Assembly (NCBI GenBank): GCA_041690055.1
Contig: JBDNFB010000009.1
Span: 92-64,091, forward strand
Source of the DNA: Myxococcota bacterium
Lineage (GTDB): Bacteria > Myxococcota_A > UBA9160 > UBA4427
Direction: 5' to 3'
DNA: 64,000 nt
Of this stretch, positions 37,983 to 58,637 are shown in pieces. The translations under genes were made by a program, and so were the position numbers. The notes under the pieces are model-generated. The model saw only the letters and a program-made list of their open reading frames with translations. It ran no database searches and was not told the DNA's origin. The first letter of the stretch is position 1. Each line of letters starts with the position of its first letter.

Positions 37983-38879
37983 CTAAAAGGGGCGCCAGGA
38001 AAAAGGGGTGCTTGGAGAAGAGAGGCGCTGCACAGACTTGCCTCGGAATAAAGGCCGTGTGCGCCAGCGCTGAATGCCTTCGGTATCTTCGAATGCGCGC
38101 GCGACATGGCGGCATCCGACTTGATGTTCACCGTCGGCCCTCGCTGCGATCAGGCTCTTATGGCAGAGGATGTTCACGAGCCGGGGAATGCCACCGCTCC
38201 CGCGATGAATGCGCTCGATTGAGGCCGGCGTGAAAATCGTTTTCTGTGTTGTACCGGCATAGAGCATGCGACGCCGGATATAGGTTCGGCAGGCCTCTCG
38301 ATCGAGAGGTCGGAGCTGAGTACTGAACGAGATGCGTTGCTGAAGCTGGCGCAGCGTATAGTCGGCGAGCTTATCGTCCAGTTCGGGCTGCCCGAAGAGC
38401 ACCACTTGTACGAGTTTTCCGTCGGAACTCTCCAGATTCGAAAGCAATCGGAGTTCTTCGAGGGTTTCGGCGGGCATGGCCTGCGCTTCGTCGACGAAGA
38501 TGATTGCGCGCCCGCCACTGCTGGCGATCATTAAGAGAATCTTACGAATGCTCTTCTGTAGGCGGTGGAGGCTGGCCTCGGGCGGAACCGTATCGTCGAG
38601 TTCGTCTGCGATTGAGAGAAGAAGATCGTGGGGCGTCATCGAAGGGTTCGGGAGATAGACCGTGAAGTCTTCGGGCGCGGGATTTGCGAGCAGACTTCGA
38701 CAGAGGGCTGTTTTGCCCGTGCCGACCTCGCCAACCACCTTTATAAAACCTTCGCCTGTGCGGAGGCCGAACAGGACCGTGTTGAATGCTTCCCTATGCC
38801 CCGGGAGGTCGACGTATACCTGCCCGTTAGACAGCGGTTCAAAAGGCAATCGCTTGAGACCGAAATGCTCCAGATACAT
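37983..38879 (-). CDS. mshM: ExeA-like AAA+ ATPase (MshM)
   Basis: MYLEHFGLKRLPFE N-terminus, Walker A GEVGTGKT, Walker B IIFVDEAQ. The start is taken at ATG 38879, preceded by GGAAGGG. Confidence 0.8.
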   Translation of the reverse strand: MYLEHFGLKRLPFEPLSNGQVYVDLPGHREAFNTVLFGLRTGEGFIKVVGEVGTGKTALCRSLLANPAPEDFTVYLPNPSMTPHDLLLSIADELDDTVPPEASLHRLQKSIRKILLMIASSGGRAIIFVDEAQAMPAETLEELRLLSNLESSDGKLVQVVLFGQPELDDKLADYTLRQLQQRISFSTQLRPLDREACRTYIRRRMLYAGTTQKTIFTPASIERIHRGSGGIPRLVNILCHKSLIAARADGEHQVGCRHVARAFEDTEGIQRWRTRPLFRGKSVQRLSSPSTPFSWRPF

Positions 38880-43619: not shown

Positions 43620-45038
43620 CTAACGAAGTGCAGCGCCTTCGGCGAAGCGGACGGCCTGAGTTCGGTCACCGCTTTCGTCAAAGCTCAGCAGCCAACCGTG
43701 TTGGAGCCCATGCGAGAACTCCGCCTGCATGCGGACCGAACCAGAGGGGTAGAATCGCGTCCAGACTCCGACGCGTAGGCCGTCCCGGTACTCGCCGATG
43801 GAGATGGGCTGTCCGTTCTCAAGATACTTTGCATACCAACCGTGCCGAAGACCGCCGGTGGCGGCGTTCTGTTCGCACCATTCTTCGTCGTGTCCATCGC
43901 GCGTCTGGTTTCGGAGCTCGGTATTGCCTGCGCAATCGCCGGTCACCTGCACTGGGAGAGGTCGAACTGGTGCGGGGGCCGCGGAACGCGCGATGGCGGC
44001 GGGGCCGGCATCGTTCATTCGAGTCGAGCTCGTTGATCGCGCTTGGCGAGCTGCCGTAAAGGAGGGAGAATATTTGGAACTGGGATCCGCAAGCAAGGCT
44101 TCAATCTCAACAAGATGCGTAGCCAGTTCGGTGTAGGTCTCGCCGCCGAGCGCATCTCGATTGGCTTCGAGTTCGGCCCGCGCGGACTGCAGAATTCCCA
44201 TTGCGTTGATCCGCTTCGCAGGATCCTGAAGGTTCGCGCCCGAAGTCGCGCGCTCAAGAGTGTCGAAGCGTTCCTGAAGCGTGAAGAGCGCCTGGATTGA
44301 AGCTTCGGTTTGGCTGTCTCTCGGCGAGGGGGTGCCGCCAGACGAAGGCAGGCCGTCGGGCATGCCAAGGTTGATGCCAGAGGTGGGCTTGAGCGCGTTT
44401 TGCTCTGCCATCTGGGCGGCAAGCTCTGCGAACTCCGGGTCCTGTGCGAGCGCTGCCCAACCTTCCGCATCTTTTGGGAAGCTTCCGTTTCGCTGCATCT
44501 GCTGGATCGCCTGAAATGAAGGCGCGAAGGAACTAAAGGTGAGCAAGAGCCCGAGCAAGAGTCCGAATTTGTTAGGCAGCTCCCAGCCATCATGGAAGGC
44601 GATATAGGGATAGGCGAAGAGATTAACGATGGGCACGAAGAGAAGGAGACCGACCCAGCCCGTGAGATCCCGTTCGGTCGCGGTATTCCAGAAAAGGCGA
44701 CCGAAATAGAAGAGGCCGAGGAGCGTCATGATCCCCATCCCGACAACGCCGACGCCAGCTCCGATGCCTGAGCCGAGCATGGCCGACGCCATTCCGAGGA
44801 CGATTGCCCCCACTATGAAGCCGAGCACGCCCATCAGGAACCGCCCGACCGAGCCGCCACCGACGACGATCATGGGCACCATCTGAAGCAGAGGGATCCA
44901 GGCGAGGACCTGCATGAGATCGCTCTCGTCGTTCTTGCTCACGATCACGGAAAGCGAGGCGCACCAGACGACCTGGAAGACGAGGGAGAGGGCGAAGATT
45001 CCGATGATAAAGGAGCCAATCCATTCCATGCAGCACAC
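43620..45038 (-). CDS. polytopic membrane protein with C-terminal MORN/YwqK-like repeats
   Basis: About 6 hydrophobic helices in the N-terminal 190 aa. The C-terminus has GLRHGWYAKYLENGQ...YRDGLRVGVWTRFYPSG...FSHGLQHGWLLSFDESG repeats. Confidence 0.55.
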   Translation of the reverse strand: MCCMEWIGSFIIGIFALSLVFQVVWCASLSVIVSKNDESDLMQVLAWIPLLQMVPMIVVGGGSVGRFLMGVLGFIVGAIVLGMASAMLGSGIGAGVGVVGMGIMTLLGLFYFGRLFWNTATERDLTGWVGLLLFVPIVNLFAYPYIAFHDGWELPNKFGLLLGLLLTFSSFAPSFQAIQQMQRNGSFPKDAEGWAALAQDPEFAELAAQMAEQNALKPTSGINLGMPDGLPSSGGTPSPRDSQTEASIQALFTLQERFDTLERATSGANLQDPAKRINAMGILQSARAELEANRDALGGETYTELATHLVEIEALLADPSSKYSPSFTAARQARSTSSTRMNDAGPAAIARSAAPAPVRPLPVQVTGDCAGNTELRNQTRDGHDEEWCEQNAATGGLRHGWYAKYLENGQPISIGEYRDGLRVGVWTRFYPSGSVRMQAEFSHGLQHGWLLSFDESGDRTQAVRFAEGAALR

Positions 45039-45145: not shown

Positions 45146-45208
45146 TTGAAAATGAAAATGGTGTTCGTTACTAATCAGCGTCGCTAATTGAAAATTGATT
45201 TCATTTCC
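45146..45208. promoter_or_regulatory. AT-rich direct repeats with weak Fur-box-like character upstream of the porin gene
   Basis: TTGAAAAT occurs twice (45146, 45188). GAAAATGAAAATGGTGTTC matches 12/19 of GATAATGATAATCATTATC by my hand count. TGAAA-N5-TTTCA palindrome at 45189-45203. Confidence 0.25.
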
Positions 45209-45260
45209 GAGGGCCAGAGAGTCAAGAGACTCAGCCGGGACATGGGTGATGAGGAAAACG

Positions 45261-46616
45261 ATGACAACCGGACTGAAACTTTTGAACGGATCGATCTGTA
45301 TCGCTTTGGCGACGCTCCTATTGATCGCTACTGCGGTGGACGCCCGCGCAGCCGATGGGGACGCGGCCGAATCCTCAAGCACCGCAGGCGCCGCAAGTGA
45401 TAAGGAGCGGATCGAAGAGCTCGAAGAAAAAGTCGATGTTCTGGCGGACGAACTCGGCCGTTTGGAGTCCGTGTTCGCGGTGCCCGAAGAACTCGAGATG
45501 GTTTCAATGAACGGCTTGGGTCCGGCGGCCTCGAAGGTCTACAAGAAGGACAAGGGTCTTTCTATTGGTGGCTACGGTGAAGTTCGACTGCGCCGCTTCG
45601 AGGATAAAGAAGACGATAACCAGAACGATATTTTCGACGCGCTTCGCGCCGTTCTCTACGTCGGTTATAAGTTCAACGAGAACTGGGTCATCAACTCCGA
45701 ACTCGAGTTCGAGCACGGAGGCTCAAGCGGTGGCGGATCGGTTTCCACCGAATTTCTGACCCTCGATTACTTCTGGCGGGACGAGGTCAATTTCCGCGCC
45801 GGTCTTGTTTTGGTCCCGATGGGCTTCGTGAATGAGATTCACGAACCGAACTTCTTCTTTGGCGCAGAGCGACCGGAAATCGAACGACAGATCCTTCCGT
45901 CAACCTGGCGTGAGAACGGCGTGGGCATCTTCGGCCAGCTTGGTGAGCGTGTGTCCTACCGCGCGTACGTGATCAACGGCTTGGATGCCTCAGGGTTCAG
46001 GGCAGGCGGTCTGCGCGGGGGCCGCCAGAAGGGCAGCCGAGCGCTGGCGAATGACTTTGCTTTCGTCGCACGTGCCGATGTCGATGTGGCGCCCGGCCTG
46101 CAGGTCGGCGGTTCGGTCTATACGGGGCAGTCGGGTCAGGAGCAGGACTCGGAAGCCACGGGGACGACGAGGGATCTGCCCGATGTGCAGACGACGATCT
46201 ACGAGATCCATGCGCAGTACAAGGGCCATGGAGCTAGTTTTCGGGCACTCTGGACCGAGGCCTATATCGACGAGGCCGGCCGACTGTCTCGAGTGCTTGA
46301 CCTAGAGGATGACGAAGCGGTCGCGCAGCATATGCGCGGTTGGTACGTTGAAGTGGGCTACGACATTATGCCGATCCTCCATGCGGATACGCGCATGTCG
46401 CTCGAGCCCTTCTTCCGCTTCGAGCAGTACAATACCCAGCGCGACGTCGCCGATCAGTTTCAGAGCGACAAGAGCCTCGATATCGATCTCTATGAAGCGG
46501 GTCTGCACTTCAAGCCGATTCCGCAGGTTGTCTTGAAGGTTGACTACCGCCACTTCGAGCCCGATAAAGGCCATCGCGCCAACGAGATCCAGGCTGGTTT
46601 GGGATACGTCTTTTGA
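45261..46616 (+). CDS. outer-membrane beta-barrel protein (porin-like) with N-terminal coiled coil
   Basis: Signal peptide ...LLLIATAVDARA. Coiled coil ERIEELEEKVDVLADELGRLES. Alternating beta-strand pattern ends in the C-terminal GLGYVF. ATG 45261 is preceded by GAGGAA. Confidence 0.65.
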   Translation: MTTGLKLLNGSICIALATLLLIATAVDARAADGDAAESSSTAGAASDKERIEELEEKVDVLADELGRLESVFAVPEELEMVSMNGLGPAASKVYKKDKGLSIGGYGEVRLRRFEDKEDDNQNDIFDALRAVLYVGYKFNENWVINSELEFEHGGSSGGGSVSTEFLTLDYFWRDEVNFRAGLVLVPMGFVNEIHEPNFFFGAERPEIERQILPSTWRENGVGIFGQLGERVSYRAYVINGLDASGFRAGGLRGGRQKGSRALANDFAFVARADVDVAPGLQVGGSVYTGQSGQEQDSEATGTTRDLPDVQTTIYEIHAQYKGHGASFRALWTEAYIDEAGRLSRVLDLEDDEAVAQHMRGWYVEVGYDIMPILHADTRMSLEPFFRFEQYNTQRDVADQFQSDKSLDIDLYEAGLHFKPIPQVVLKVDYRHFEPDKGHRANEIQAGLGYVF

Positions 46617-47236
46617 GCCTGTTGTTTGAATCGCGGCGAACGCGACGAAGACAAGGAGTGCACGCGCGAAAGCGCGTGGCGCTCCTTGCGGCGTTCTGCA
46701 TTTGCCTTTTCGCGGTGACGGTTAGCGGGCCGGCGCAAGCGAAGGTTTTCGCTAGCCAGAACCAGGCGCTCGCGGAAGCCTTTCCGGATGCCACGCGCGT
46801 CGACCGCAAGACGATGATTCTGAAGAGGCCGCAGGTCGAAGCGATCGAGAATCGAACCGGTGGCAAGGTCAAATCGAAGATCGTTGTTCTCCACACCGCC
46901 TATCGCGACGACGAAGTCATTGGCTACGCGCATATCGACGTGCATACGGTGCGGACGCAGCCCGAGGCTTTCCTGGTTGTGTTGACGCCGGGGGGGCGAG
47001 TCCGGACGGTACGGATTTTGGCCTTCCACGAACCCCTCGACTATCTGCCGACGAATCGCTGGTACGATCAGTTTGCGGATAAGGGGAAGGGGGATAGCCT
47101 GCGTGTTGGCCGCGATATCCATGGCGTAGTCGGCGCTACACTCTCGGCGCGTGCAGCGGCGGACGGTGTGCGGCGGATGCTCGTGTACTACGAAGTGCTG
47201 CTCCGGCCGGCTCAAGTCGCCGACTCAAACTCCTAA
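46613..47236 (+). CDS. secreted FMN_bind-domain protein (predicted ApbE substrate)
   Basis: Signal peptide LLAAFCICLFAVTVSGPAQA. The C-terminal DIHGVVGATLSARAAADGV aligns to the FMN_bind flavinylation site (canonical D-x-x-S-G-A-T). TTGA overlap with the porin stop. Confidence 0.65.
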   Translation: MSLLFESRRTRRRQGVHARKRVALLAAFCICLFAVTVSGPAQAKVFASQNQALAEAFPDATRVDRKTMILKRPQVEAIENRTGGKVKSKIVVLHTAYRDDEVIGYAHIDVHTVRTQPEAFLVVLTPGGRVRTVRILAFHEPLDYLPTNRWYDQFADKGKGDSLRVGRDIHGVVGATLSARAAADGVRRMLVYYEVLLRPAQVADSNS

Positions 47237-47334
47237 ACGGGGCTAAAGGCGTCTAGGCCAGTTAAAGGCTTCTAGACCTCGCTATTGGCTTTGAGACTCC
47301 GTAGACGGATTCGCGTATATAAGGAAAGAGTGTC

Positions 47335-47940
47335 TTGCGCTTCACGCTCACGGGTGAGTGGGATCAGAACCGCCTCTTGCAGGCGGTCGTTGTCCTCTAT
47401 TGCGTCTTTGTGGTCCTGCTCTGGGCCACGAATTGGATGCTTTATTTTGATTCTATGGATCTGACGACTGCGTCGGTGGTGGATCATTTCCTGGGCGATG
47501 AAGAGGAGTTCCGTTCGGCGCGCACGTATCGTGGGATGCTTGAGCTCACGCATTTTCATCTTTTCTCGATGGGCATGTTGATGATGGTGTTGACGCATCT
47601 CGCGCTCTTTGTGCCGGTGGGAACGCGGCTAAAGCTTGCGCTGATTTTCGTGCCGTTCTTTTCTGCGCTTGCTTCCGAAGGCACGAGCTGGTTGGTGCGT
47701 TACGGCGGCGCGGGTTTCGCTTGGACGAAGATCGCTGGATTTTTGATGTTGCAGGGAAGCCTCGCCGCGCTGGTCGCGATTGCGATGTGGTCCGTTTTCG
47801 CGGGGCGGCAGGGCGAGAATTACCGGGGAGGAGCGAAGGGGGAAGAAGCCGAAGAGGCGGGCGAGGGTACCGCGACAGCGGCGAACGCCGGGTCGGGGCC
47901 TGCTGCCGAATTCGATTTTGACGATGATGGGTGGGACTGA
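47335..47940 (+). CDS. 4-TM membrane protein with intramembrane histidines and acidic C-terminal tail
   Basis: Four hydrophobic helices. LELTHFHLFSMGMLMMVLTHL has three His residues in or near TM2. No family firmly recognised (a DUF4405 or cytochrome-b-like fold is speculation). TTG start. Confidence 0.5.
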   Translation: MRFTLTGEWDQNRLLQAVVVLYCVFVVLLWATNWMLYFDSMDLTTASVVDHFLGDEEEFRSARTYRGMLELTHFHLFSMGMLMMVLTHLALFVPVGTRLKLALIFVPFFSALASEGTSWLVRYGGAGFAWTKIAGFLMLQGSLAALVAIAMWSVFAGRQGENYRGGAKGEEAEEAGEGTATAANAGSGPAAEFDFDDDGWD

Positions 47941-49001
47941 TGTTCCGCCGCCGCGGCGTTTTCTGCGCTGCGCATTGTGTGTGGATCGCTGTTCTGTGGT
48001 TCGGCGTGACCGCCTGCCATTCAGTCCGGCCGCTGCTGCCGCCGACTCCAGAGCGCGTCGTGGTTTCCGATGGTTGGCTCGCTATGGGGACCTTCTTCGA
48101 TGTGGATCTTCGCGTCGCGCCCGATTCGGTCGCCGCGGCGAATGCTTGGCTCGCCTGGACGCGCGAGGAAGTCGCGCGGCTTGAGGCGATCTACTCTAAA
48201 TACGATCCCGAGAGCGAGATCTCCGTACTGAACCGGGCGCTCGCTCGGGGCGAGCTTCAGTCGGAGCCCATGCCCGTGAGTCCCGAATTGACCTCGTTAA
48301 TTCTCGGCTCGGCAGAGGTTTGGGCTCGAACCGGAGGCGCGTTCGACGTCACGGTCGGCCCGTTGATCGACGTTTGGCAACGTGCGGTCGCTCGCCGCGC
48401 ATGGCCTTCGGACGAGGAGTTGCGTGAGGCCAAGCTGCGGAGCGGGATGGAGCGGCTGCTCCTTGGGGAGGGCGGTCTGCGCGTGCGCGGCGCGGGGATG
48501 CGACTCGATCTCGATGGTATTTCAAAGGGCGCCGTCCTCGATCATCTTGGACGCGATTTCAGGGCCCGGTTCGCGGGCGCCGCGGCGCTTCTGAGCTTCG
48601 GCGAGAGCAGCATCCTGGCGATCGGCGATCCGGACGGCGCGGGATGGCGTCTCGGAGTGACTTCCCGCGATCCGGACGTCGGAGAGCTGGCCCGCGTCGT
48701 ACTTCGCGATCGTGCTCTTTCGGTCAGCTCCAGTGTGGGCAGCGTGAGTGAGATCGGGGGCGAGCCCGTTTCGCACGTGGTGGACGCTCGGACGGGGAGC
48801 ATTGTGCGGGGGACGGTGGAGGCCGTCGTGATCGCTGCGTCTGCGACGGAAGCGGATGCCTGGAGTACCGCATTGCTCGCGTTAGGTGCGCGTAAGAAAT
48901 CCGTTCAGATCGTGGAGCGCGCCGGGCTGGATGCGTATGTCTATGAATCGGGCGGACGGACAATCGTCAGCCAAGGTTGGGACGAGTTCGTTTCATTTTG
49001 A
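47931..49001 (+). CDS. apbE: FAD:protein FMN transferase (ApbE family), lipoprotein, paralogue 2
   Basis: Lipobox GVTAC. Motifs GTFFDV, FDVTVGPL, DLDGISKGAVLD, SHVVDARTG and EADAWSTAL are typical of ApbE. Confidence 0.8.
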   Translation: MGLMFRRRGVFCAAHCVWIAVLWFGVTACHSVRPLLPPTPERVVVSDGWLAMGTFFDVDLRVAPDSVAAANAWLAWTREEVARLEAIYSKYDPESEISVLNRALARGELQSEPMPVSPELTSLILGSAEVWARTGGAFDVTVGPLIDVWQRAVARRAWPSDEELREAKLRSGMERLLLGEGGLRVRGAGMRLDLDGISKGAVLDHLGRDFRARFAGAAALLSFGESSILAIGDPDGAGWRLGVTSRDPDVGELARVVLRDRALSVSSSVGSVSEIGGEPVSHVVDARTGSIVRGTVEAVVIAASATEADAWSTALLALGARKKSVQIVERAGLDAYVYESGGRTIVSQGWDEFVSF

Positions 49002-50238: not shown

Positions 50239-50622
50239 CTAGAGCGCGGCGACGATCGACCAGACTGAGGCGACCGCGACGACGAGAACCGATCCCAACG
50301 CGCCCACGGTGCGAAGATGCTTGAGCCCGCTCTCTGTGCCGAATCCGACGGCATGACAAACGCGCGCGAAGAAGAGTCCGCCTCCGAGGCCATGGATCAC
50401 GTTTCCGCCGACGCCGTTCAGTTCAAGGAGTGCGATCAGAATCAGACTGAGCGGAACGAACTCGACGAAGTTCGCGTGCCGCCGCATCGCCGTAATCACC
50501 TTGGGATCGCCGCCGTCCCCGATGCTGATGCCGGTGCTGCCCCGGACTTTACCGACGCTGAGCACGACGATGATGGAAAGGATTCCGAGCAGTCCAGCGT
50601 AGAGAAGCGTGATTGAGGGCAT
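50239..50622 (-). CDS. MAPEG-family membrane protein (YecN-like)
   Basis: ITLLYAGLLGILSIIVVLSVGKVR...RRHANFVEFVPLSLILIALLE matches the MAPEG pattern. About 4 TM helices. Confidence 0.75.
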   Translation of the reverse strand: MPSITLLYAGLLGILSIIVVLSVGKVRGSTGISIGDGGDPKVITAMRRHANFVEFVPLSLILIALLELNGVGGNVIHGLGGGLFFARVCHAVGFGTESGLKHLRTVGALGSVLVVAVASVWSIVAAL

Positions 50623-50712: not shown

Positions 50713-50775
50713 GAGTTAGGGGAGTTAAGGGGGTTAAGGGGGTTAAGGGGGTTAGGGAGGTTAATAGAGTTAGGC
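50713..50775 (+). repeat. G-rich 9-nt tandem repeat x7 (GRGTTARGG); G-quadruplex-capable
   Basis: GAGTTAGGG GAGTTAAGG GGGTTAAGG GGGTTAAGG GGGTTAGGG AGGTTAATA GAGTTAGGC. G-runs of 4, 5, 5, 5 and 3 are separated by 3-6 nt. The dgkA stop codon lies in the last unit. Confidence 0.85.
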
Positions 50776-51147
50776 GAAGAACAGAAGAAAGCGCCGGCCA
50801 AGGGTAAGGAGCCCCACGATCAGTGCACCCATCGAGGCCAATAGAACGGCTCCCGCGGCGACATCCTTCGCGCGTTCGATGCCAGGATGATGCTCGGGCG
50901 AGACGACGTCGCAGAGAGCCTCGATCGCCGTATTGAAGCCCTCGGCCGCCCACACCGAAGCCACTGCGAGGACTAGTGCGATCCACTCCAGTCGGTCGAC
51001 GCCTAAGGCGAATCCGAAGCCCACGACAAGGACCGTGGCAAAAGCATGGATGCGGGCGTTTCGCTCCGTGCGTAGCGTGGTCGCGATCCCGCGAAAGGCA
51101 TAGCGAAAGGTCAGGAAGGGGTTGGGTGAGGGGGGTTGGGCGGCCAT
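50770..51147 (-). CDS. dgkA: diacylglycerol kinase (prokaryotic DgkA family)
   Basis: FRYAFRGI...ERNARIH...AEGFNTAIEALCD...AKDVAAGAVL are DAGK_prokar motifs. Confidence 0.8.
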   Translation of the reverse strand: MAAQPPSPNPFLTFRYAFRGIATTLRTERNARIHAFATVLVVGFGFALGVDRLEWIALVLAVASVWAAEGFNTAIEALCDVVSPEHHPGIERAKDVAAGAVLLASMGALIVGLLTLGRRFLLFFA

Positions 51148-51189: not shown

Positions 51190-52257
51190 TCAGTCGGGAA
51201 AGTGCGCGTTGCGATGCTCCGAGATCTCGCCTTCGGCGTCGCGGATGAGGACGAGTGCCCCCAATTTATACTGTTCGGCGAGAGCGAGGCCCTCCACGCC
51301 TAAGACCATGAGAGTCGTGGCCCAGGCGTCCGCTTCCGTCGCGCTCGCAGCGATGACAGTGGCCGCGGCGGGGCCGTTTTGGACGGGGCGTCCTGTACGC
51401 GGGTCGATCGTATGCGAGATGCGCTGCTCGCCTTCGAGATAGAAAATGCGGTAGTCGCCGGAGGTGGCCATGCCCTGGTTCTGCAGCTCGACGATCGACT
51501 GCACTTCGCGACCTTCGTCGAGGGGTTTCTCTATGCCGATTCGCCAGGGGCCACCACCAGGGCGTTGGCCTGCGGCATAGACTTCGCCGCCGATTTCAAC
51601 CATGAAGTCTTCGCGACCCATTTCGAGCAGGCCCGCGGCGACATGATCGACGCCATATCCCTTGGCGATCGCGGAGAGATCGATCTTCACGAGCGGATCT
51701 GCCTTGCGGAGGAAGCCCCCGCTGACTGCATTACCGCGGCCAATGCGAAGGATGCGTCCGCCCATGCGCGAGAGGTGGGTCTGAATCTCCTCTGCGCTTG
51801 GGGGTGAGTCCACCTGCGCGCGGCTGCCGAAGCCCCAGCGTGAAACGAGGGGTCCCACCGTGATGTCGAAGGCGCCTGAACTCCATTTGCAGAGCTCAAC
51901 CGCGTAGGCGACGACCTCGGCTGTTTCGAAGGAGACTGGGAAGCCGTCGGTGCTTTCGAAGGCGTTGAAGCGTGAGACTTCCGAATCGGGATTCCAATCC
52001 GAGAGCCAGCCGTCGATTTCCTCGAGGCGCCGCTCGGTCTCTTTTTTGGCCTGGACGCGAAGTGCCTCGCCGAGCCCAGGACCGGCCAATCGAATCTGGT
52101 ACGTCGTGCCCATCGTCTCGCCCTCGAACGTGAGCAGGTCGGTTTGGCTCGGGACGTCCGCCAGAAAAAGTCGGTGGATCGTCAAGCCTGAAAGCAGCAC
52201 GAAAGCGATCGCAATCATGCGCAGCGTGTGTCGGTCGATTTCGAGTCGGGGTGCCAT
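51190..52257 (-). CDS. apbE: FAD:protein FMN transferase (ApbE), nqr-linked paralogue 1
   Basis: Motifs GTTYQI, FDITVGPL, DLSAIAKGYGVD, SHTIDPRTG and EADAWATTL. It lies immediately downstream of nqrF, as in Vibrio. The start is taken at ATG 52257. Confidence 0.85.
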   Translation of the reverse strand: MAPRLEIDRHTLRMIAIAFVLLSGLTIHRLFLADVPSQTDLLTFEGETMGTTYQIRLAGPGLGEALRVQAKKETERRLEEIDGWLSDWNPDSEVSRFNAFESTDGFPVSFETAEVVAYAVELCKWSSGAFDITVGPLVSRWGFGSRAQVDSPPSAEEIQTHLSRMGGRILRIGRGNAVSGGFLRKADPLVKIDLSAIAKGYGVDHVAAGLLEMGREDFMVEIGGEVYAAGQRPGGGPWRIGIEKPLDEGREVQSIVELQNQGMATSGDYRIFYLEGEQRISHTIDPRTGRPVQNGPAAATVIAASATEADAWATTLMVLGVEGLALAEQYKLGALVLIRDAEGEISEHRNAHFPD

Positions 52258-52410
52258 GGCGGATTCCTCGAGTGCATGATGGCACGCCTCGCGTCTGCAG
52301 ACACGGACTCGCACCCCGCCCGCGCGCCGAGAATGAAAGCGCCGCGGCCGGCAAAGGAGAGCGCCGCGACTGCCAAGAAAAAGCGCCTGCGGCTGCCCCT
52401 AAAAAGAAAG

Positions 52411-52450
52411 GCAGGCCCGGCTTCACCGTGACCTGCCCTTGATTTGATCT
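52411..52450 (-). terminator. candidate rho-independent terminator/attenuator between nqrF and apbE
   Basis: Minus strand reads AAGGGCAGG-tcacggtgaagccggg-CCTGCCTTT followed by CTTTTT. The stem has one mismatch. Confidence 0.45.
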
Positions 52451-52490
52451 CGTATTCGTCCGGAGACGCCCTACGCGATCGTGATTCTGA

Positions 52491-53720
52491 TCAGCCGCCG
52501 AAATCGTCGAACCTGACGTTTTCGGGTTCGACGCCGAGGTCGGTGAGCATCTTGATCACCGCGTCGTTCATCATCGGCGGGCCACAGATGTAGTACTCAC
52601 AATCCTCCGGCGAGGGATGATCCTTCAGGTAGTTATCGAAAAGCACCTGATGGATGAAGCCCTTGTAGCCATCGAAATCATCTTCGGGCTGCGGTTCGGA
52701 GAGCGCGAGATGCCACTCGAAGTTCTCGTTTTCCGCCTGGATCGCGTCGAAGTCCTCGACGTAGAACGCTTCTCGGAGGCTGCGTGCGCCGTACCAGAAG
52801 GAAACCTTGCGGTCCGAGCTGAGTCGTCGGAACTGGTCGAAGATATGGGACCTCATGGGCGCCATGCCCGCGCCACCACCGATGAAGACCATCTCGTTCT
52901 GCGTGTCCTGGGCGAAGAACTCGCCGAAGGGACCGGAGATGACGACTTCGTCGCCCGGCTTCAAGTTGAAGATATAAGAAGACATCTGTCCCGGCGGAAT
53001 GCCTTCGGGGCCGCGCGGCGGCGGCGAAGCGATCCGGACGTTCAGCATGATGATGCCTGCTTCGTCCGGGTAGTTCGCCATCGAGTAGGCGCGGTTGATG
53101 GTCTCGCCGACCGTCGATGAATAGCGCCAAACATCGAACTGATCCCAGTCGCCTTGAAACTCTTCTTCGACGTTGAAGTCCTTGTAGTTCACTGTATGCG
53201 GCGGACATTCGATCTGGATATAGCCACCGGCGCGGAACGGGACGCTCTCGCCTGTAGGCAGTTCCAGCACGAGCTCTTTAATGAAAGTCGCCACATTATG
53301 GTTTGAGCGGACCGTACAGGTCCAGCGGCGGACACCAAAGATCTCATCCGGGATCTCGATGTTCATGTCCTGCTTGACCTTCACCTGACAGGAGAGTCGG
53401 CAGCCGTCGCGCGCGTCGCCGCGACTGACATGCCCAGTCTCCGTCGGGAGGATCGAACCGCCGCCGTCGTTGACCGTGACGCGACAAACGCCACACGTAC
53501 CCTGGCCACCGCACGCGGAGGGGATAAAGATCTGGTTATCGGCCAGGGTGTTCAGCAGCGTCGAGCCCGCTGGCGCCGTGAGCGCCTTGTCCGGATCGCC
53601 GTTGATCAGGATCGTGACGTCCCCGCTCTGGACGAGCTGCGCCTTGGCTGCCATCAGAATCATGACGAGCGCGAGAATCACAGTGGTGAATCCAGCTACG
53701 CCTAAGAGGATTGTTTCCAT
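52491..53720 (-). CDS. nqrF: Na+-translocating NADH:quinone oxidoreductase subunit F
   Basis: N-terminal TM, 2Fe-2S motif [19 protein letters not shown] domains ([20 protein letters not shown]). The real start is ATG 53720 (METILLG). The track ORF runs on through the upstream repeats. Confidence 0.95.
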
Positions 53721-53769
53721 CGTTCGTTTAAACTCCCTGGCTCGTGTTCTGGCTTCGTCCTGGCTGTCT

Positions 53770-53895
53770 GAGTCTTCAACCCAAGGCCGCGCCTGCGGCC
53801 GTAAAACAATCGAGTCTTCAACCCAAGGCCGCGCCTGCGGCCGTAAAACAATCGAGTCTTCAACCCAAGGCCGCTCCCGCGGCCGCAAGGTAAAT
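53770..53895 (-). repeat. 42-nt hairpin-containing tandem repeat x3 (REP-like) in the nqrE-nqrF spacer
   Basis: GAGTCTTCAACCCAAGGCCGCGCCTGCGGCCGTAAAACAATC occurs twice, plus one diverged copy. Each unit carries a GGCCGC-N4-GCGGCC stem-loop. Confidence 0.9.
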
Positions 53896-54503
53896 CAAAG
53901 TTGTATTCCTGCGAAGGCCATGAAGCCGACCGACATGAGGCCGACTGTGATGAAGGTGATACCTAGACCGCGGAGCGGACCGGGCACATTGCTGTATCGC
54001 ATCTTCTCGCGAATCGCGGCTAGGGCGACAACGGCAAGCAGCCATCCCACACCCGAACCCGCTCCAAAGACCGTAGCTTCCGCCAGCGTATAGTCTCGTT
54101 CCTGCATGAACAGCGATGCGCCGAGAATTGCGCAGTTCACCGCGATCAGCGGAAGGAACACGCCGAGCGCGTTGTAGAGCTCGGGTGAGAACCGGTCGAG
54201 AGTCATCTCGACGATCTGCACCGCAGCCGCGATCGTGCCGATCATCACCAGGAAGCTCAGAAAGCTCAGGTCGATATCGGGAACGCCGGCCCAGGCGAGC
54301 GCGCCGGGCTTAAGCAGGACGGTATTCAGCATCTGGTTGAGCGGACACGTAATGCCCAACACGAAGATGACGGCCATACCCAGGCCCATTGCTGTTTCGA
54401 CCTTCTTTGAGACGGCTAGGAAAGAGCACATCCCCAAGAAGAAGGCCAAGGCCATGTTCTCAACGAAGATTGCCTTCGTTGCTAAGCTCAAGTAGTGCTC
54501 CAA
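53895..54503 (-). CDS. nqrE: Na+-NQR subunit E
   Basis: [34 protein letters not shown] is near-identical in pattern to Vibrio NqrE. TTG start is preceded by GAGGAG. Confidence 0.95.
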
Positions 54504-55134
54504 CGTGGAACTCCTCTTCGATCTGCTCGGGCTTCCATGAGCGCACGGCCCAAATGAAGCATCCGATCAGGAAGAAAGCGGCCGGTGCCAAAAGCATCAG
54601 GCCATTCGGGACATACCAGCCACCCTGGGTGACCGGGTTCAAAATCGTGTAGCCGAAGAGCGACCCGGAACCGAGCAGCTCGCGGAAGAAGGCAACCGCC
54701 ATCAGGACGATCGAGTAGCCGATCCCGTTTGCGATGCCGTCAATGAAGGCGAGCTTCGGCGGGTTCTGCATGGCGAAGGCTTCGGCGCGGCCCATCACGA
54801 TGCAGTTCGTGATGATCAGGCCGACGAAGACGGAAAGCTCTTTAGCAATCTCGTAAACGAAGGCCTGGAGGATCTGGTCAACGACGATCACGAGCGACGC
54901 GATCACCGTCAGCTGGACGATGATGCGGATGCTGCTCGGGATTTTGTTGCGGAGAAGCGAGATAGACAGATTCGAGAGCGCGGTCACCGCGATCACGGCG
55001 AGACACATGACAAGCGCCGAGGACATCTTCGTCGTGACGGCGAGCGCCGAACAAATGCCGAGCACCTGAAGGGCGATCGGATTATTGTTGAAGAGTGGGT
55101 CGATGAACGCTTCTCGCGGGCTGACTTCTGCCAT
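54460..55134 (-). CDS. nqrD: Na+-NQR subunit D
   Basis: [20 protein letters not shown]...[14 protein letters not shown] are NqrD signatures. The C-terminal tail overlaps nqrE by 44 nt. Confidence 0.95.
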
Positions 55135-55148
55135 GGTCTGCTTCTCTC

Positions 55149-55193
55149 TTCTCTAACTTCTCTAACTTCTCTAACTTCTCTAACTTCTCTTAC
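55149..55193 (-). repeat. 9-nt tandem repeat x5 (plus TTCTCTAAC; mRNA sense GTTAGAGAA) just upstream of nqrD
   Basis: Read directly from the sequence. It ends 15 nt upstream of the nqrD ATG (55134) in the 111-nt nqrC-nqrD spacer. Confidence 0.9.
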
Positions 55194-55245
55194 TACTGTG
55201 TTCGGCATGACGAGCGTCGCGCCCGCAAAGCCGTGATGCCTTTTG

Positions 55246-56025
55246 CTAGACGCCTGCCTGCACGCGGTAATTCGCGAGGTAGGGTCCGAATCCATCATCG
55301 CCGAGCCAGAAGCGAACCAGGCTGGTCACGCCGCGGCTGGTAATCGTCGCGCCCGAGAGGCCATCGACGTTGTAGGGGTCTTCCGAGACTGGTCCGGCGG
55401 CGCCCTTCTTGACGGCGATGACGGGCTTGCCGCGCTCGTTGAAGGCGAGGCGTCCGGGCCAGAGCGCTTTCCAGCGCTTATTGTCCACTTCGCCGCCGAG
55501 GCCGGGCGTTTCTTTGTGTTTGTAGAAAGTAATGCCCTTGATCGTGCGCGCATCGGGAGCGAGCGCGAGATAACCGTAGAGCGTGCCCCAGAGGCCATAG
55601 CCTTCGATGGGCAGGATCAGACCCGTGAGCTCGCCGTTTTCCATGACGTCGAAGACGAGTGCGTTGTTCGGCAGGCGTCGCACTTTGGCGGCGTTTTCGG
55701 GCGCTTCCGTGCTTCGGTCGGGATCGCCGGCCGCAGCCTGCTGATCGAAGCTCGTTGCATCGATGTCGGGAATGATTTTACCCGTCTCGAGGGAGACGAC
55801 CTTCTGCTTGATGCTGGAACCGAAGAGTGTGGCGACTTCATCTCGCGGGACGCTGGCGCCGTCTTCGATCATGCCGGCGACGGTCAGGACTTTCGTCTGC
55901 CGATCGAGGAGCTTGTTCGCGTCTTGCATGTCCTTGAGGCCCACAGCGGAACCCGCGACAAACAGTGCGCATACGAGACAGATCGCGGCGGCAAAGCCGA
56001 TGATGTAGCTAGTACTATACTGCAT
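55246..56025 (-). CDS. nqrC: Na+-NQR subunit C
   Basis: N-terminal TM helix. Flavinylation site NVDGLSGATITSRGV. Confidence 0.95.
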   Translation of the reverse strand: MQYSTSYIIGFAAAICLVCALFVAGSAVGLKDMQDANKLLDRQTKVLTVAGMIEDGASVPRDEVATLFGSSIKQKVVSLETGKIIPDIDATSFDQQAAAGDPDRSTEAPENAAKVRRLPNNALVFDVMENGELTGLILPIEGYGLWGTLYGYLALAPDARTIKGITFYKHKETPGLGGEVDNKRWKALWPGRLAFNERGKPVIAVKKGAAGPVSEDPYNVDGLSGATITSRGVTSLVRFWLGDDGFGPYLANYRVQAGV

Positions 56026-57244
56026 AGCGTGCTTCCCTGCGGCGAACGTTCGCCTGGACGAAGTAGTGGTCGATCAGCGGCGCGAACATGTTCATGAACA
56101 GAATCGCGAGCATCATGCCTTCCGGGTAGGCCGGGTTGACCACGCGGATCAGGATGACGAGCACACCGATCAAGAGGCCGTAGATCAACTTGCCCTGGTT
56201 CGTGAAGGCTGAAGAAACCGGGTCGGTGGCCATGTAGACGAGGCCGAAGGCCCAGCTGCCCATGACCGCATGCCAGTACCACGGCACGCCGAACATCGGG
56301 TTCGTCTCGGAGCCGACGACGTTCAGGAAGCCGGCCATGATGATCGTTCCGCCGACGACACCCGCCATCGTTCGCCACGAGCCGATGCCCGTCCAAATCA
56401 GGTAGAAGGCGCCCATCATGGCAGCAAGGGTCGAAGTTTCACCCATCGATCCGGGAATGAAACCCAGGAAGGCTTGCGTCCAGCTCGCACCGGCGAGTGC
56501 AGCTTCGCCAGAGACAGCCGCCTGCGCGAGCAGGGTGGCACCGGAGTAGCCATCCAAGCCCGAGAAGTCCGCTGCGATCCATGCCGCGTCGCCGCTCAGC
56601 GCCGCGGGATATGCGAAGAAGAGGAAGGCGCGCGAAGTCAGGGCGGGGTTCAGGAAGTTCATACCCGTGCCGCCGAAGATCTCCTTCGCGAAGATTGTGC
56701 CGAAGGCCGTACCGATCACGACCATCCAGAGCGGGATCGTGGGCGGAAGCGTGAGCGGGATCAGCATGCCGGTGACAAGGAAGCCCTCGTTGATCTCGTG
56801 CTTGCGGATCATCGCGACGAGCGGTTCGAGGATGCCGCCGGTGGCCATCGAAGCGACCACAACCGGGAGGTAGTGGAGAGCACCGAAGACGGTGCACGCA
56901 ATGATATTTCGGAAGGACTCGCCGTCGATCGGGCCGGCGATGGCCTGATAGAGCCATGCCTGCCAGCTATCGAGCGGGATGGCGCCCTGCGCGATCGCGA
57001 GCATCGCCTGATAACCCGTATTGTACATCGCCATGCCCATACAGGGCAGAAGGGCGAGTACGACCGTGATCATCAGTCGTTTATTGTCGAGTCCATCCCG
57101 TACATGGGATGCCGTTCGCGTCACTTCACCCGGCGTGAAGAGGCCCGTGAACTGGGCCTCCCAAAGCGGGTAGAAAAATTCGAGCTTGCCGCCCTTTTCG
57201 AAGTGATGCTTTACGTTGAGGTGCGCGTCCTTTAGGAACTGCAT
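56015..57244 (-). CDS. nqrB: Na+-NQR subunit B
   Basis: Polytopic. Flavinylation site GLDGYSGATLLAQ. C-terminal NMFAPLIDHYFV. Confidence 0.95.
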   Translation of the reverse strand: MQFLKDAHLNVKHHFEKGGKLEFFYPLWEAQFTGLFTPGEVTRTASHVRDGLDNKRLMITVVLALLPCMGMAMYNTGYQAMLAIAQGAIPLDSWQAWLYQAIAGPIDGESFRNIIACTVFGALHYLPVVVASMATGGILEPLVAMIRKHEINEGFLVTGMLIPLTLPPTIPLWMVVIGTAFGTIFAKEIFGGTGMNFLNPALTSRAFLFFAYPAALSGDAAWIAADFSGLDGYSGATLLAQAAVSGEAALAGASWTQAFLGFIPGSMGETSTLAAMMGAFYLIWTGIGSWRTMAGVVGGTIIMAGFLNVVGSETNPMFGVPWYWHAVMGSWAFGLVYMATDPVSSAFTNQGKLIYGLLIGVLVILIRVVNPAYPEGMMLAILFMNMFAPLIDHYFVQANVRRREARYAV

Positions 57245-57251
57245 GGACCCC

Positions 57252-58637
57252 TCAACCCTCCTTCTCGATTATTTCGAGGTTCTTCCGCAAGAGCGGACCA
57301 AAATTATTCTTGCCCGGATCTACGTAGGTGCAGAGCGCGAGATCTTCTTCGTCAAGTTCGAGAATGCCGAAGCTTTCGGCGCGCTCGATATCGCCCACCA
57401 TCATTGATCGAAGCAAGAAGGTGGGCATCAAATCCATCGGCATGATCTTTTCGTACAGGCCGATCGGAACCATGGCGCGAACCGATCCGTTTGTGTTCGT
57501 CGTGAACCGGAATCGTTCGGGCTTAAAAATCTTCGAGAGATAGATACCGGTGACGGAGAAAAGATCCGCGCCGGGCGTGAGCCATCCCAAGAAAACGTTT
57601 TCGCGGTCTTCTTCAAGCAAGCTGATCTGCCGCTCGTAGCGACCCAGGAAGTCGAAGATCTCGCCTTCAGTTCGCTTACCAGAGAGAACACTGCCTGAAA
57701 TGGCGCGCATTTCTTTCTCGTCCGCGGCGATCTCGCCGGCCACGGTCTCGCTGATGCAGGCGCCGATGCGCGAACGGATGAGTCGCGGGTCTTCGACGTT
57801 CGGTCCGGCGATCGAAATCACGCGCGAGGTGTCGAGTCGACCCGTCGTCGCCAGGCGGCCGACTGCGGCGACGTCCTGGTAACCGATATGCCAAACCTTC
57901 TTCTCTCGGCTCACGGGGCGCAGCGTATGAATATGCATGCCGACCGTGCCCGAAGGATGCGGCCCGACAAAGCGCTCAACGCGCACCGTGTCCGGCGCCG
58001 CGTCTGCGATCTCGGAATGCTCTGTCGTGCAGAGATAAGTCGGACCGTCGACGAGCTTCGCGACGAGCGCGGCACCGAGTCGGAAATCGTCCATCTGATC
58101 TTCGAGGACAACTTCGGGGTCGGGCGCGTGAGGGTTTGTGTCCGTCGCAGTAATAAAGAGGGCTTCGGCCGTCGTGGTCGGCTCCGGAACCTTGCTGAAC
58201 GGGCGCGTTCGCAGCGCCGTCCATAGGCCCGATTCAACCATCAAGGCCTTGATCTGATCACCAGACAAGGATTCGGGAGAACCCCCCGTGAAATTCTCGA
58301 AGCTCTGGAATTCGTCATCCGCCGGTGTGCCTGACCGCTCGCCATCCGAAAGATCAATCACGACCGCCTGGAGCGCGCGCCTCTCGCCGCGGTGAATCCC
58401 GAGGACACGACCCGCAGCCGGCGCGGTATGCATGACGCCCGGAGACTTGCGGTCTTCGAAGAGAATCTGGCCGCGTTTCACGACCTGTCCCTCTTCAACG
58501 TGCATTCGCGGCTTCATGCCGGGATAGTCGTCCGCGACCACGGCCACGCGCGTGCAGGAGGCCGCTTCTCGGATGACCTGGAGAGGCTTTCCGGGAATGG
58601 GGAGGTCGAGGCCCTTGTGGATCTTATGCAGTGCCAT
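57252..58637 (-). CDS. nqrA: Na+-NQR subunit A
   Basis: MALHKIHKGLDLPIPGKP N-terminus and overall length are typical of NqrA. It is the first gene of the operon. Confidence 0.95.
   Translation of the reverse strand: MALHKIHKGLDLPIPGKPLQVIREAASCTRVAVVADDYPGMKPRMHVEEGQVVKRGQILFEDRKSPGVMHTAPAAGRVLGIHRGERRALQAVVIDLSDGERSGTPADDEFQSFENFTGGSPESLSGDQIKALMVESGLWTALRTRPFSKVPEPTTTAEALFITATDTNPHAPDPEVVLEDQMDDFRLGAALVAKLVDGPTYLCTTEHSEIADAAPDTVRVERFVGPHPSGTVGMHIHTLRPVSREKKVWHIGYQDVAAVGRLATTGRLDTSRVISIAGPNVEDPRLIRSRIGACISETVAGEIAADEKEMRAISGSVLSGKRTEGEIFDFLGRYERQISLLEEDRENVFLGWLTPGADLFSVTGIYLSKIFKPERFRFTTNTNGSVRAMVPIGLYEKIMPMDLMPTFLLRSMMVGDIERAESFGILELDEEDLALCTYVDPGKNNFGPLLRKNLEIIEKEG

Follow-up and report, generated by a model that had tools for sequence, protein, structure and literature searches.

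Sequence analysis of a 64,000-nucleotide stretch of DNA from an uncultured Myxococcota-type bacterium, known as a metagenome-assembled genome (GenBank assembly GCA_041690055.1, contig JBDNFB010000009.1, positions 92 to 64,091 of the forward strand), hereafter the window, revealed four genes at 45261-49001, all on the + strand, which encode an outer-membrane porin (the barrel), a secreted FMN_bind protein (P2), an inner-membrane protein with four transmembrane (TM) helices (P3) and a lipoprotein ApbE. We give about an even chance to the interpretation that this locus is an iron-starvation operon building a three-compartment, flavin-dependent iron-acquisition module, with P3 as the electron input. 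The features of the locus are as follows.

45153-45167: distal Fur-type box TGAAAATGGTGTTCG, 3 mismatches to TGAAAATNATTTTCA, within the longer element TTGAAAATGAAAATGGTGTTCGTTA (45146-45172)
45189-45203: proximal Fur-type box TGAAAATTGATTTCA, 2 mismatches to TGAAAATNATTTTCA, about 60-70 nt before the barrel start codon
45261-46616, + strand: outer-membrane porin (barrel) gene, in an open reading frame (ORF) of 45195-46616 with alternative starts at 45246 and 45249
46613-47236, + strand: gene for P2, a secreted FMN_bind-type protein; an ORF with a weak Pfam FMN_bind match
47335-47940, + strand: gene for P3, an inner-membrane protein with four TM helices; Aq_1264_TM family (PF27139, precomputed on the identical protein)
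47931-49001, + strand: gene for an ApbE lipoprotein (FAD:protein FMN transferase; FAD, flavin adenine dinucleotide; FMN, flavin mononucleotide), with a PF02424 match

A preliminary description of the window had reported the four co-directional genes, a TTGA overlap at 46613-46616 (the barrel/P2 junction) and a 10-nt overlap at 47931-47940 (the P3/ApbE junction), all of which were found where it had placed them, and the motifs it listed (GLGYVF, DIHGVVGAT, THFHLF...LTHL and a lipobox) were all located in the translations. The barrel start was set at 45261 because the identical database protein has 451 amino acids, and the P3 start codon is TTG, preceded by the ribosome-binding site AAGGAAAGAG. 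For each of the four, relatives number from hundreds to thousands, and the best 120 listed per search are 58-100% identical to the window proteins. A sigma-70 promoter scan returned no match, and a terminator scan returned terminator-like matches at no more than chance level.

P2 is supported as a genuine FMN_bind-type acceptor and is predicted to bear covalent FMN. The signal peptide is cut before a conserved AKVFASQ, the predicted mature N-terminus, and 23 of 23 aligned orthologues match FMN_bind at E <= 0.05 (best E 2.8e-5). A search of the PDB with the P2 family profile yielded RnfG (E 0.0024), and P2 itself matches TIGR01947 rnfG at E 0.002. The P2 search gave 1392 matches, those listed being 58-100% identical to the window protein, and sources label these proteins RnfG-like or FMN-binding. 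Signal peptide, orthologue matches and RnfG match support the earlier assignment of P2 as a secreted FMN_bind protein. Its single predicted flavinylation site, DIHGVVGAT, spans residues 168-176 (DNA 47114-47140), the acceptor Thr176 being encoded at 47138-47140. Across 144 non-identical orthologues from very different lineages Thr176 is 100% and G174 98% conserved, which settles in favour of the acceptor a point that the preliminary description had left to be checked, namely whether the threonine of its GAT motif is conserved. The canonical I[ST]GAT is present in many P2 orthologues, and the canonical motifs claimed for NqrB (DGYSGAT) and NqrC (DGLSGAT) were both read in the window.

The ApbE of the cluster matches PF02424 at E 8.3e-48 (163.6 bits, profile positions 1-265 of 266) and scores 98 bits against NF007774, under the equivalog cut-off of 498. 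Its N-terminus, ...WFGVTAC, contains the lipobox VTAC with Cys29 at 48015-48017. It had been described as a second copy distinct from the nqr-linked ApbE (51190-52257), and the two are 33% identical. P2 is predicted to be extracytosolic, and the ApbE gene lies two genes downstream of it. The earlier view, that the locus is a dedicated module for extracytosolic flavinylation and has an ApbE to itself, is supported.

Upstream of the barrel gene, AT-rich repeats with a weak resemblance to Fur boxes had been noted. The repeats are there; the resemblance is not weak, as they are a phylogenetically conserved pair of Fur-type 7-1-7 boxes. Two elements, TTGAAAATGAAAACCGTTTTCGTTAAAA and ATTGAAAATCATTTTCAATT, are common to close relatives in the DNA upstream of the operon, the former occupying the same place as the distal element of the window, and the shared core is the palindrome TGAAAAT-N-ATTTTCA. 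This consensus equals the delta-proteobacterial dFUR box WTGAAAATNATTTTCAW, derived by Rodionov et al. (2004) from feoAB and fur upstream regions (PMC545781). Counting of sites with <=2 mismatches in 63 distinct orthologous loci gave 34 in 22.7 kb of upstream DNA versus 15 in the other 850 kb, or 1.5 vs 0.018 per kb, respectively (about 85-fold enrichment), and 12 of the 15 outlying sites lie 316-408 nt upstream of the barrel, in front of a small ORF that is added at the head of the operon. Distant lineages carry Fur-type variants of their own, e.g. TGATAATGATTATCA, and in one locus (L166) the barrel gene is preceded, at about 40 nt, by a perfect Fur-type site. On these sequences, we predict that a regulator of the Fur family represses the operon.

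Three further observations relate to Fur-type sites. The extra first gene, which occurs in a subset of Myxococcota loci (L035, L065, L066, L072, L082 and others), encodes about 95 amino acids with a Com-like zinc ribbon, C.C..C...KCRRCKR, and is absent from the window. The Fur-box intergenic region is shared with a divergent gene (43620-45038, - strand) for a 472-amino-acid membrane protein with C-terminal MORN-like repeats, conserved in the closest relatives only. A third Fur-type site, TGAAAATCGTTTTCT at 38231-38245 (2 mismatches), lies inside a minus-strand secretin/pilus-like block and may be a chance match, 0.9 matches being expected per window.

Relatives of P3 were collected with two scans. 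The first, a pattern scan of species-representative genomes, found 469 stretches encoding a P3 relative and returned 80 loci (nearly all metagenome-assembled genomes of Myxococcota, P3 49-83% identical); the second, of metagenome contigs and seeded with distant P3 relatives, gave 80 further loci with G+C fractions of 0.29-0.72. The order barrel-P2-P3 is kept in about 160 loci with G+C contents of 29-72% (Myxococcota, Thermodesulfobacteriota and Aquificaceae). Wherever flanking sequence suffices, essentially all species-representative loci contain the three genes in order, usually with a + strand ApbE next. In eleven Myxococcota loci the cluster has no ApbE to itself, and P3 is followed by an nqr-type ApbE in convergent orientation; four loci have none within reach. 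Of the 80 distant loci, 73 contain P3, 68 contain P2, 61 the barrel and 27 an adjacent ApbE, the last either upstream or downstream and on either strand. Aquificaceae contigs carry the FMN_bind gene followed by a tandem-duplicated Aq_1264_TM, and fusions of P3 to ApbE follow the barrel and P2 genes in two further lineages.

Because the order of the trio recurs while ApbE adjoins it only sometimes, the unit of selection is the trio of porin, FMN_bind protein and Aq_1264_TM protein, with ApbE a frequent but dispensable neighbour; the quartet whose co-conservation the preliminary description had proposed to check is reduced to a trio accordingly. The loci with an nqr-type ApbE directly after P3 are L028-L031, L033, L034, L038, L039, L056, L058 and L069. 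Since the cluster lacks an ApbE of its own in these eleven related genomes, one transferase is suggested to be able to serve both the nqr and the P2 systems.

The same counts bear on the idea that P3 is an FAD exporter feeding the periplasmic ApbE, the operon being mainly a cassette for flavinylation and maturation of P2. Fusions of P3 to ApbE in several lineages fit such a role, and the route of FAD to ApbE is an acknowledged open question (PMC12052999). However, P3 tracks P2 and the porin in the distant loci rather than ApbE, the eleven Myxococcota loci have no ApbE of the cluster's own, and other ApbE substrates, e.g. those of the nqr operon here, are not paired with P3. To our knowledge, a protein of four TM helices with a Glu/His signature is also unlike the known flavin exporters, and we consider the exporter very unlikely.

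De novo clustering of flanking ORFs, which is noisy in the high-GC loci, revealed no further conserved neighbour there; its only clusters were housekeeping genes peculiar to a lineage and ORFs in a wrong frame. From the distant set came FTR1, a Sel1 protein, DUF1844 and a small secreted protein, none of them in more than one lineage in the clustering. In 8 low-GC loci (L088, L089, L091-L096) the gene for an FTR1 permease (E 1.5e-25) follows that for P3 at a distance of about 0.9 kb, and FTR1 also adjoins the trio in L060 (9559-11781), L124 (1780-3714) and L149 (715-2901), the L060 gene having two Fur-type boxes of its own; several unrelated lineages are thereby represented. In the low-GC marine lineage, P3 and FTR1 are separated by the gene for a secreted protein (about 116 amino acids) without a Pfam match. 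One P3 relative (P0399, locus L167 1477-3275) is fused at its C-terminus to DtxR-type Fe_dep_repr_C and FeoA domains, with a fur-family gene directly next to it, and another (P0381) is fused to a PilZ domain. No fur or FTR1 gene was found in the 64-kb window. The reductive iron uptake at which the preliminary description had guessed thus gains real support from the conserved Fur boxes, the adjacency of FTR1, the fur gene downstream in L167 and the DtxR_C/FeoA fusion.

An Na+-NQR operon with its own ApbE (51190-58637, - strand) lies convergent to the cluster. It was rejected as part of the unit, as it adjoins in only about 26 of 82 loci. Flavodoxin replaces ferredoxin, and an iron-sparing swap of this kind can be proposed here, with P2 and P3 replacing a haem or iron-sulfur (Fe-S) periplasmic carrier under iron limitation and serving respiration or envelope redox upkeep, not uptake. 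The Fur boxes and the neighbouring Na+-NQR operon, found in the window and its closest relatives, are consistent with such a swap. Its logic is raised explicitly in the flavinylation literature (PMC8238504), and a Fur-regulated flavodoxin has been predicted in Desulfovibrio (PMC545781). However, a dedicated, extremely conserved first-gene porin has no role in it, no terminal oxidoreductase is conserved beside the trio, NQR is an infrequent neighbour, and the links to FTR1, fur and DtxR/FeoA point to iron handling itself. We therefore rate a swap of this kind as unlikely.

The first gene encodes a signal peptide, an N-terminal coiled coil (about 45390-45473) and a barrel with the C-terminal end GLGYVF, and its only Pfam match is OMP_b-brl (PF13505), at the C-terminus, with E 2e-7. 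The modelling of barrel topology proposed in the preliminary description was run with AlphaFold2 and gave a barrel, with 16 strands after the coiled coil (predicted local distance difference test, pLDDT, 75.6; predicted template modelling score, pTM, 0.71). Foldseek aligned the model to OmpU, OmpM1, OmpC and OmpF (E between 6e-14 and 1e-11), and the target TM-scores reached 0.72. The barrel is thus modelled as an ordinary 16-strand general porin fold, neither DUF3570 nor MtrB-like, and is probably a trimer. Across G+C contents of 29-72%, 69 barrel positions are >=90% conserved in 118 orthologues. The most conserved segment is the long loop between strands 5 and 6 (about 45813-45908), with the pattern PMGFVNEIHEPNFFFGAERPEIER.ILPSTWRENG or PMGFVNEIHEPNFFFGAERPE.ER.ILPSTWRENG. 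From established porin architecture, we infer that this acidic, His-containing loop corresponds to L3, the constriction loop.

The preliminary description had gone further and joined the barrel to electron transfer towards the outer membrane or exterior; on such a reading the KGHGAS stretch that it listed in the barrel would be a possible second flavin site. The gene order (outer-membrane barrel, periplasmic flavoprotein, inner-membrane protein, ApbE) agrees with a conduit of this kind, and a flavinylated DUF3570 protein provides a precedent (PMC8238504). KGHGAS is indeed present, but it is not a conserved motif; the orthologue columns vary freely (KYRGLE, QYSGFE, KGYGLS and others), so that it was rejected as a second flavin site, and no conserved [ST]GA[ST] motif was found in the barrel among orthologues. 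The DUF3570 (PF12094) search that had been suggested gave no match to the barrel even at E 10. In MtrAB-type conduits a barrel of about 26 strands sheaths a multi-cofactor redox protein, whereas a 16-strand general porin is too small to sheath a redox protein as MtrB does, and P2 has one predicted flavin site. Because the fold is that of an ordinary porin and KGHGAS is not conserved, an inner membrane-to-outer membrane conduit or extracellular electron transfer is unsupported, and we find it hardly credible. The earlier interpretation as a whole is partly supported: the flavinylation module and iron uptake gain support, and the electron conduit to the outer membrane or exterior does not.

P3 belongs to Aq_1264_TM, a family without known function; PF27139 is precomputed on the identical protein and on all 120 listed P3 relatives, and a search with the P3 family profile gave 641 clusters at 50% identity. 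The AlphaFold2 model has four TM helices, and the tail is acidic, ending DGWD. Helix TM2 contains the signature E70-x-x-H73-x-H75 (47542-47559) and H88 (47596-47598), four residues that are nearly invariant across the family; in the window THFHLF corresponds to residues 72-77 and LTHL surrounds H88. P3 had no match in Pfam at E 10 (in a release older than PF27139) or in NCBIfam. Its fold had a best E of 0.76 against the PDB in Foldseek, with no FoxB among the matches, and the family profile found nothing relevant among PDB sequences. A likeness to MAPEG-type 4-helix proteins at that E of 0.76 was set aside as meaningless. PepSY-like, MsrQ-like and DUF4405 proteins have two membrane His pairs (PMC11334425). 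Membership of P3 in DUF4405, a family that the preliminary description had proposed to search, or among the other flavinylation-associated membrane cytochromes was not borne out, given the absence of a Pfam match at E 10, the His residues on one helix and the absence of a fold match.

The mean number of Lys and Arg residues in P3 is 2.5 at the N-terminus, 2.1 in loop 2 and 2.1 in the C-tail, and in the P3-ApbE fusions an additional TM helix and a basic segment connect the two proteins. This charge distribution and the additional helix favour an N-in/C-in topology, in which the end of TM2 that bears E70, H73 and H75 would be the periplasmic one, with H88 lying nearer the cytoplasm. In 13 tandem-duplicated relatives, repeat 1 keeps E70 and H73 and is without H75 and H88, and repeat 2 is without H73 and keeps H75 and H88. 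Because these losses are complementary, they imply that single-domain P3 would act as a dimer in which one asymmetric ligand set suffices, made of H73 from one subunit and H75 with H88 from the other. Such a pattern allows for one bis-His cofactor (H73/H75') near the periplasmic face or for one metal-binding path, and the role of P3 would be either electron input or Fe2+ passage.

In the second case, the operon would be the same Fur-controlled uptake operon, and the P3 dimer would be an inner-membrane channel or permease for Fe2+ (or another divalent metal), whose mouth on the periplasmic side would carry E70, H73 and H75, with H88 nearer the cytoplasm. Flavinylated P2 would reduce the iron admitted by the porin and would take its electrons from a donor encoded elsewhere. 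Glu and His, the conserved polar residues in the membrane, are typical metal ligands; the complementary His losses fit a single central site formed by two repeats; and the C-terminal cytoplasmic Fe_dep_repr_C with FeoA and PilZ fusions resemble regulatory domains of transporters. The trio would then be a complete outer membrane-periplasm-inner membrane route, and no permease would be conserved nearby because P3 itself completes that route. However, the FTR1 encoded directly after P3 in several lineages would be redundant, the P3-ApbE fusions in several lineages point to the flavin side, P3 has no similarity to a known transporter family or fold (Pfam, PDB fold, PDB sequence), and the electron source of P2 is left unexplained. 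A channel is the main rival to the electron-input role and is possible, though on balance we doubt it.

The electron-input role is preferred because of the P3-ApbE fusions, the separate FTR1 in some lineages and the precedents among characterised FMN_bind proteins. Every characterised flavinylated FMN_bind protein is coupled to a membrane electron-transfer component, and flavinylated FMN_bind proteins with such partners have repeatedly been tied to iron assimilation (PMC8238504). In the mechanism that we favour, low iron would vacate the two Fur-type boxes and the four genes would be transcribed together. The porin would let iron species into the periplasm via its conserved acidic, His-containing constriction loop, and the lipoprotein ApbE, by its established mechanism, would move FMN from FAD onto Thr176 of P2. 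Flavinylated P2 would then carry out one-electron iron chemistry in the periplasm, most likely the reduction of Fe(III) or an Fe(III)-chelate to Fe(II). The P3 dimer would be the inner-membrane partner of P2, with its E70/H73/H75 cluster at the periplasmic end of TM2. In the version that we prefer, a redox cofactor (one His-ligated haem b, or a metal) would span the interface between the two subunits, and P3 would pass electrons from quinol to the FMN. Fe(II) would enter by a permease encoded elsewhere, or in some lineages by the neighbouring FTR1.

Several points weigh against this interpretation. P2 of the window scores 16.8 bits against FMN_bind (PF04205), under the gathering score of 22, and its motif, H170-G-V-V173-G-A-T176, has His at -6 and Val at -3. 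With neither Asp at -6 nor Ser/Thr at -3, the full D-x-x-[S/T]-G-A-[S/T] is not present in P2 of the window. Because the acceptor Thr never varies across the P2 family and many orthologues are canonical, VVGAT with His at -6 is a lineage-specific departure; according to a review of ApbE, replacement of the conserved motif Asp by Ala has minor effects (PMC12052999). No similarity of P3 to any cytochrome was detected by Pfam, PDB fold or PDB sequence, its conserved His residues are three only and all on one helix, and symmetric H88/H88' haem ligation is excluded by the tandem-repeat pattern. Fusions of P3 to DtxR_C/FeoA and PilZ suit a regulated channel better than an electron carrier. Confidence in the structure models is moderate (pLDDT 70 for P3 and 76 for the barrel). 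No cytosolic electron donor, terminal iron permease or siderophore/TonB component was found in the operon or conserved beside it. Finally, it is uncertain that the regulator is Fur itself, as a Fur-family paralogue sensing Mn, Zn or peroxide could bind such boxes, whose consensus is computational and comes from other delta-proteobacteria.

The closest known systems are those for iron assimilation described by Meheust et al. (2021) (PepSY-like/FoxB, MsrQ-like and P19-FTR1; PMC8238504). They share with the locus a secreted FMN_bind acceptor with an adjoining ApbE, a small His-bearing inner-membrane partner, and Fur regulation and co-localisation with iron transporters as clues to function. However, Aq_1264_TM is in none of their five membrane-partner classes, nor is it DUF4405/FezC (PMC11334425); a dedicated first-gene porin stands here in place of a TonB-dependent receptor; there is no NAD-binding or VIT1 component; and the acceptor motif is VVGAT in the lineage of the window vs [ST]GAT there. 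We rate the module as a variant of the known flavinylation-linked iron-assimilation systems with a new membrane component. The DUF3570/DsbD flavinylated outer-membrane system from the same study likewise has an ApbE cluster with an outer-membrane-type protein of about 420-450 amino acids and occasional links to iron transporters. Unlike that system, the barrel here has neither a PF12094 match nor a conserved [ST]GA[ST], there are no DsbD, thioredoxin-like or DUF4266 genes, and the acceptor is a separate FMN_bind protein.

P2 is also close to the N-terminal FMN_bind domains of RnfG, NqrC and NosR, RnfG being its best sequence relative, and shares with them a periplasmic location and a GAT acceptor near the C-terminus; P2, in contrast, is a soluble, stand-alone secreted protein outside the Rnf, Nqr and Nos complexes, and all its scores are far under the family cut-offs. 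P3 resembles the small FezC/DUF4405 membrane cytochromes (Huang et al. 2024; PMC11334425) in being small or homodimeric, His-bearing and tied to apbE and iron handling, but it has no sequence match to them, bears its conserved His on one helix only, and would have at most one bis-His site according to the tandem repeats. A further cluster, in the alphaproteobacterium Emcibacter_A sp002749135 (NVVY01000001.1 genes 100-103; Meheust et al. 2021, supplementary file 1), consists of a divergent ApbE, an OprO/P-like porin, an FMN_bind protein and a 210-amino-acid K09939 protein, and is flagged in the table only as 'OrganohalideReductase', through a dehalogenase six genes away. The K09939 protein stands where Aq_1264_TM stands here, and the membrane partner may be interchangeable.

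The porin may itself have been noticed before. A predicted Fur-regulated porin, 'psp', was described in Geobacter metallireducens and Desulfuromonas with two tandem dFUR boxes, a weak similarity to PF07396 (Porin_O_P) and homologues in Aquifex and uncultured bacteria (PMC545781). The locus here has two boxes as well, and its P3 family is named after Aquifex aq_1264. PF07396 is carried by one of the 120 listed barrel homologues; the window barrel itself has no match to PF07396, OMP_b-brl alone matching. From these likenesses, we infer that psp is the barrel family of this operon, an equivalence that counts among the uncertainties of the favoured interpretation; if the equivalence holds, the porin was already predicted to be Fur-regulated in 2004. 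It was treated then as a single gene, and the FMN_bind, 4-TM and ApbE genes are not mentioned there (PMC545781). In the library searched, no paper mentions aq_1264 or PF27139, and the system is not described in the literature that was found by combining FMN-binding, porin and Fur. The preliminary description had likewise not recognised the composition as that of a characterised system.

Two tandem repeats were also found in the window. A 42-bp repeat at 53770-53885 (2.8 copies, 97% matches) lies between nqrE and nqrF, on the 5' side of nqrF, and translates as a repeated 14-residue unit in a long ORF. A 9-bp repeat, GTTAAGGGG, at 50713-50774 (about 5.6 copies) lies between a MAPEG gene (50239-50622) and a diacylglycerol kinase gene (50770-51147).

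Tentatively, and at less than even confidence, we propose that the trio is a self-contained, previously undescribed pathway of reductive iron import present across several phyla, and that Aq_1264_TM represents a membrane protein class of its own, which would be either a dimeric redox carrier of minimal size whose His site is asymmetric or an Fe2+ channel of a new kind, loaded directly by the flavoprotein. If true, this would be a flavin-based, siderophore-independent route of iron acquisition in abundant uncultured Myxococcota and Thermodesulfobacteriota of sea and soil, in Aquificaceae, and probably in Geobacter and Desulfuromonas. The Pfam family Aq_1264_TM would gain a function, the Fur-regulated 'porin' left open since 2004 would be explained, and the locus would serve as a compact three- or four-gene model of how an ApbE-flavinylated protein is wired to the membrane.

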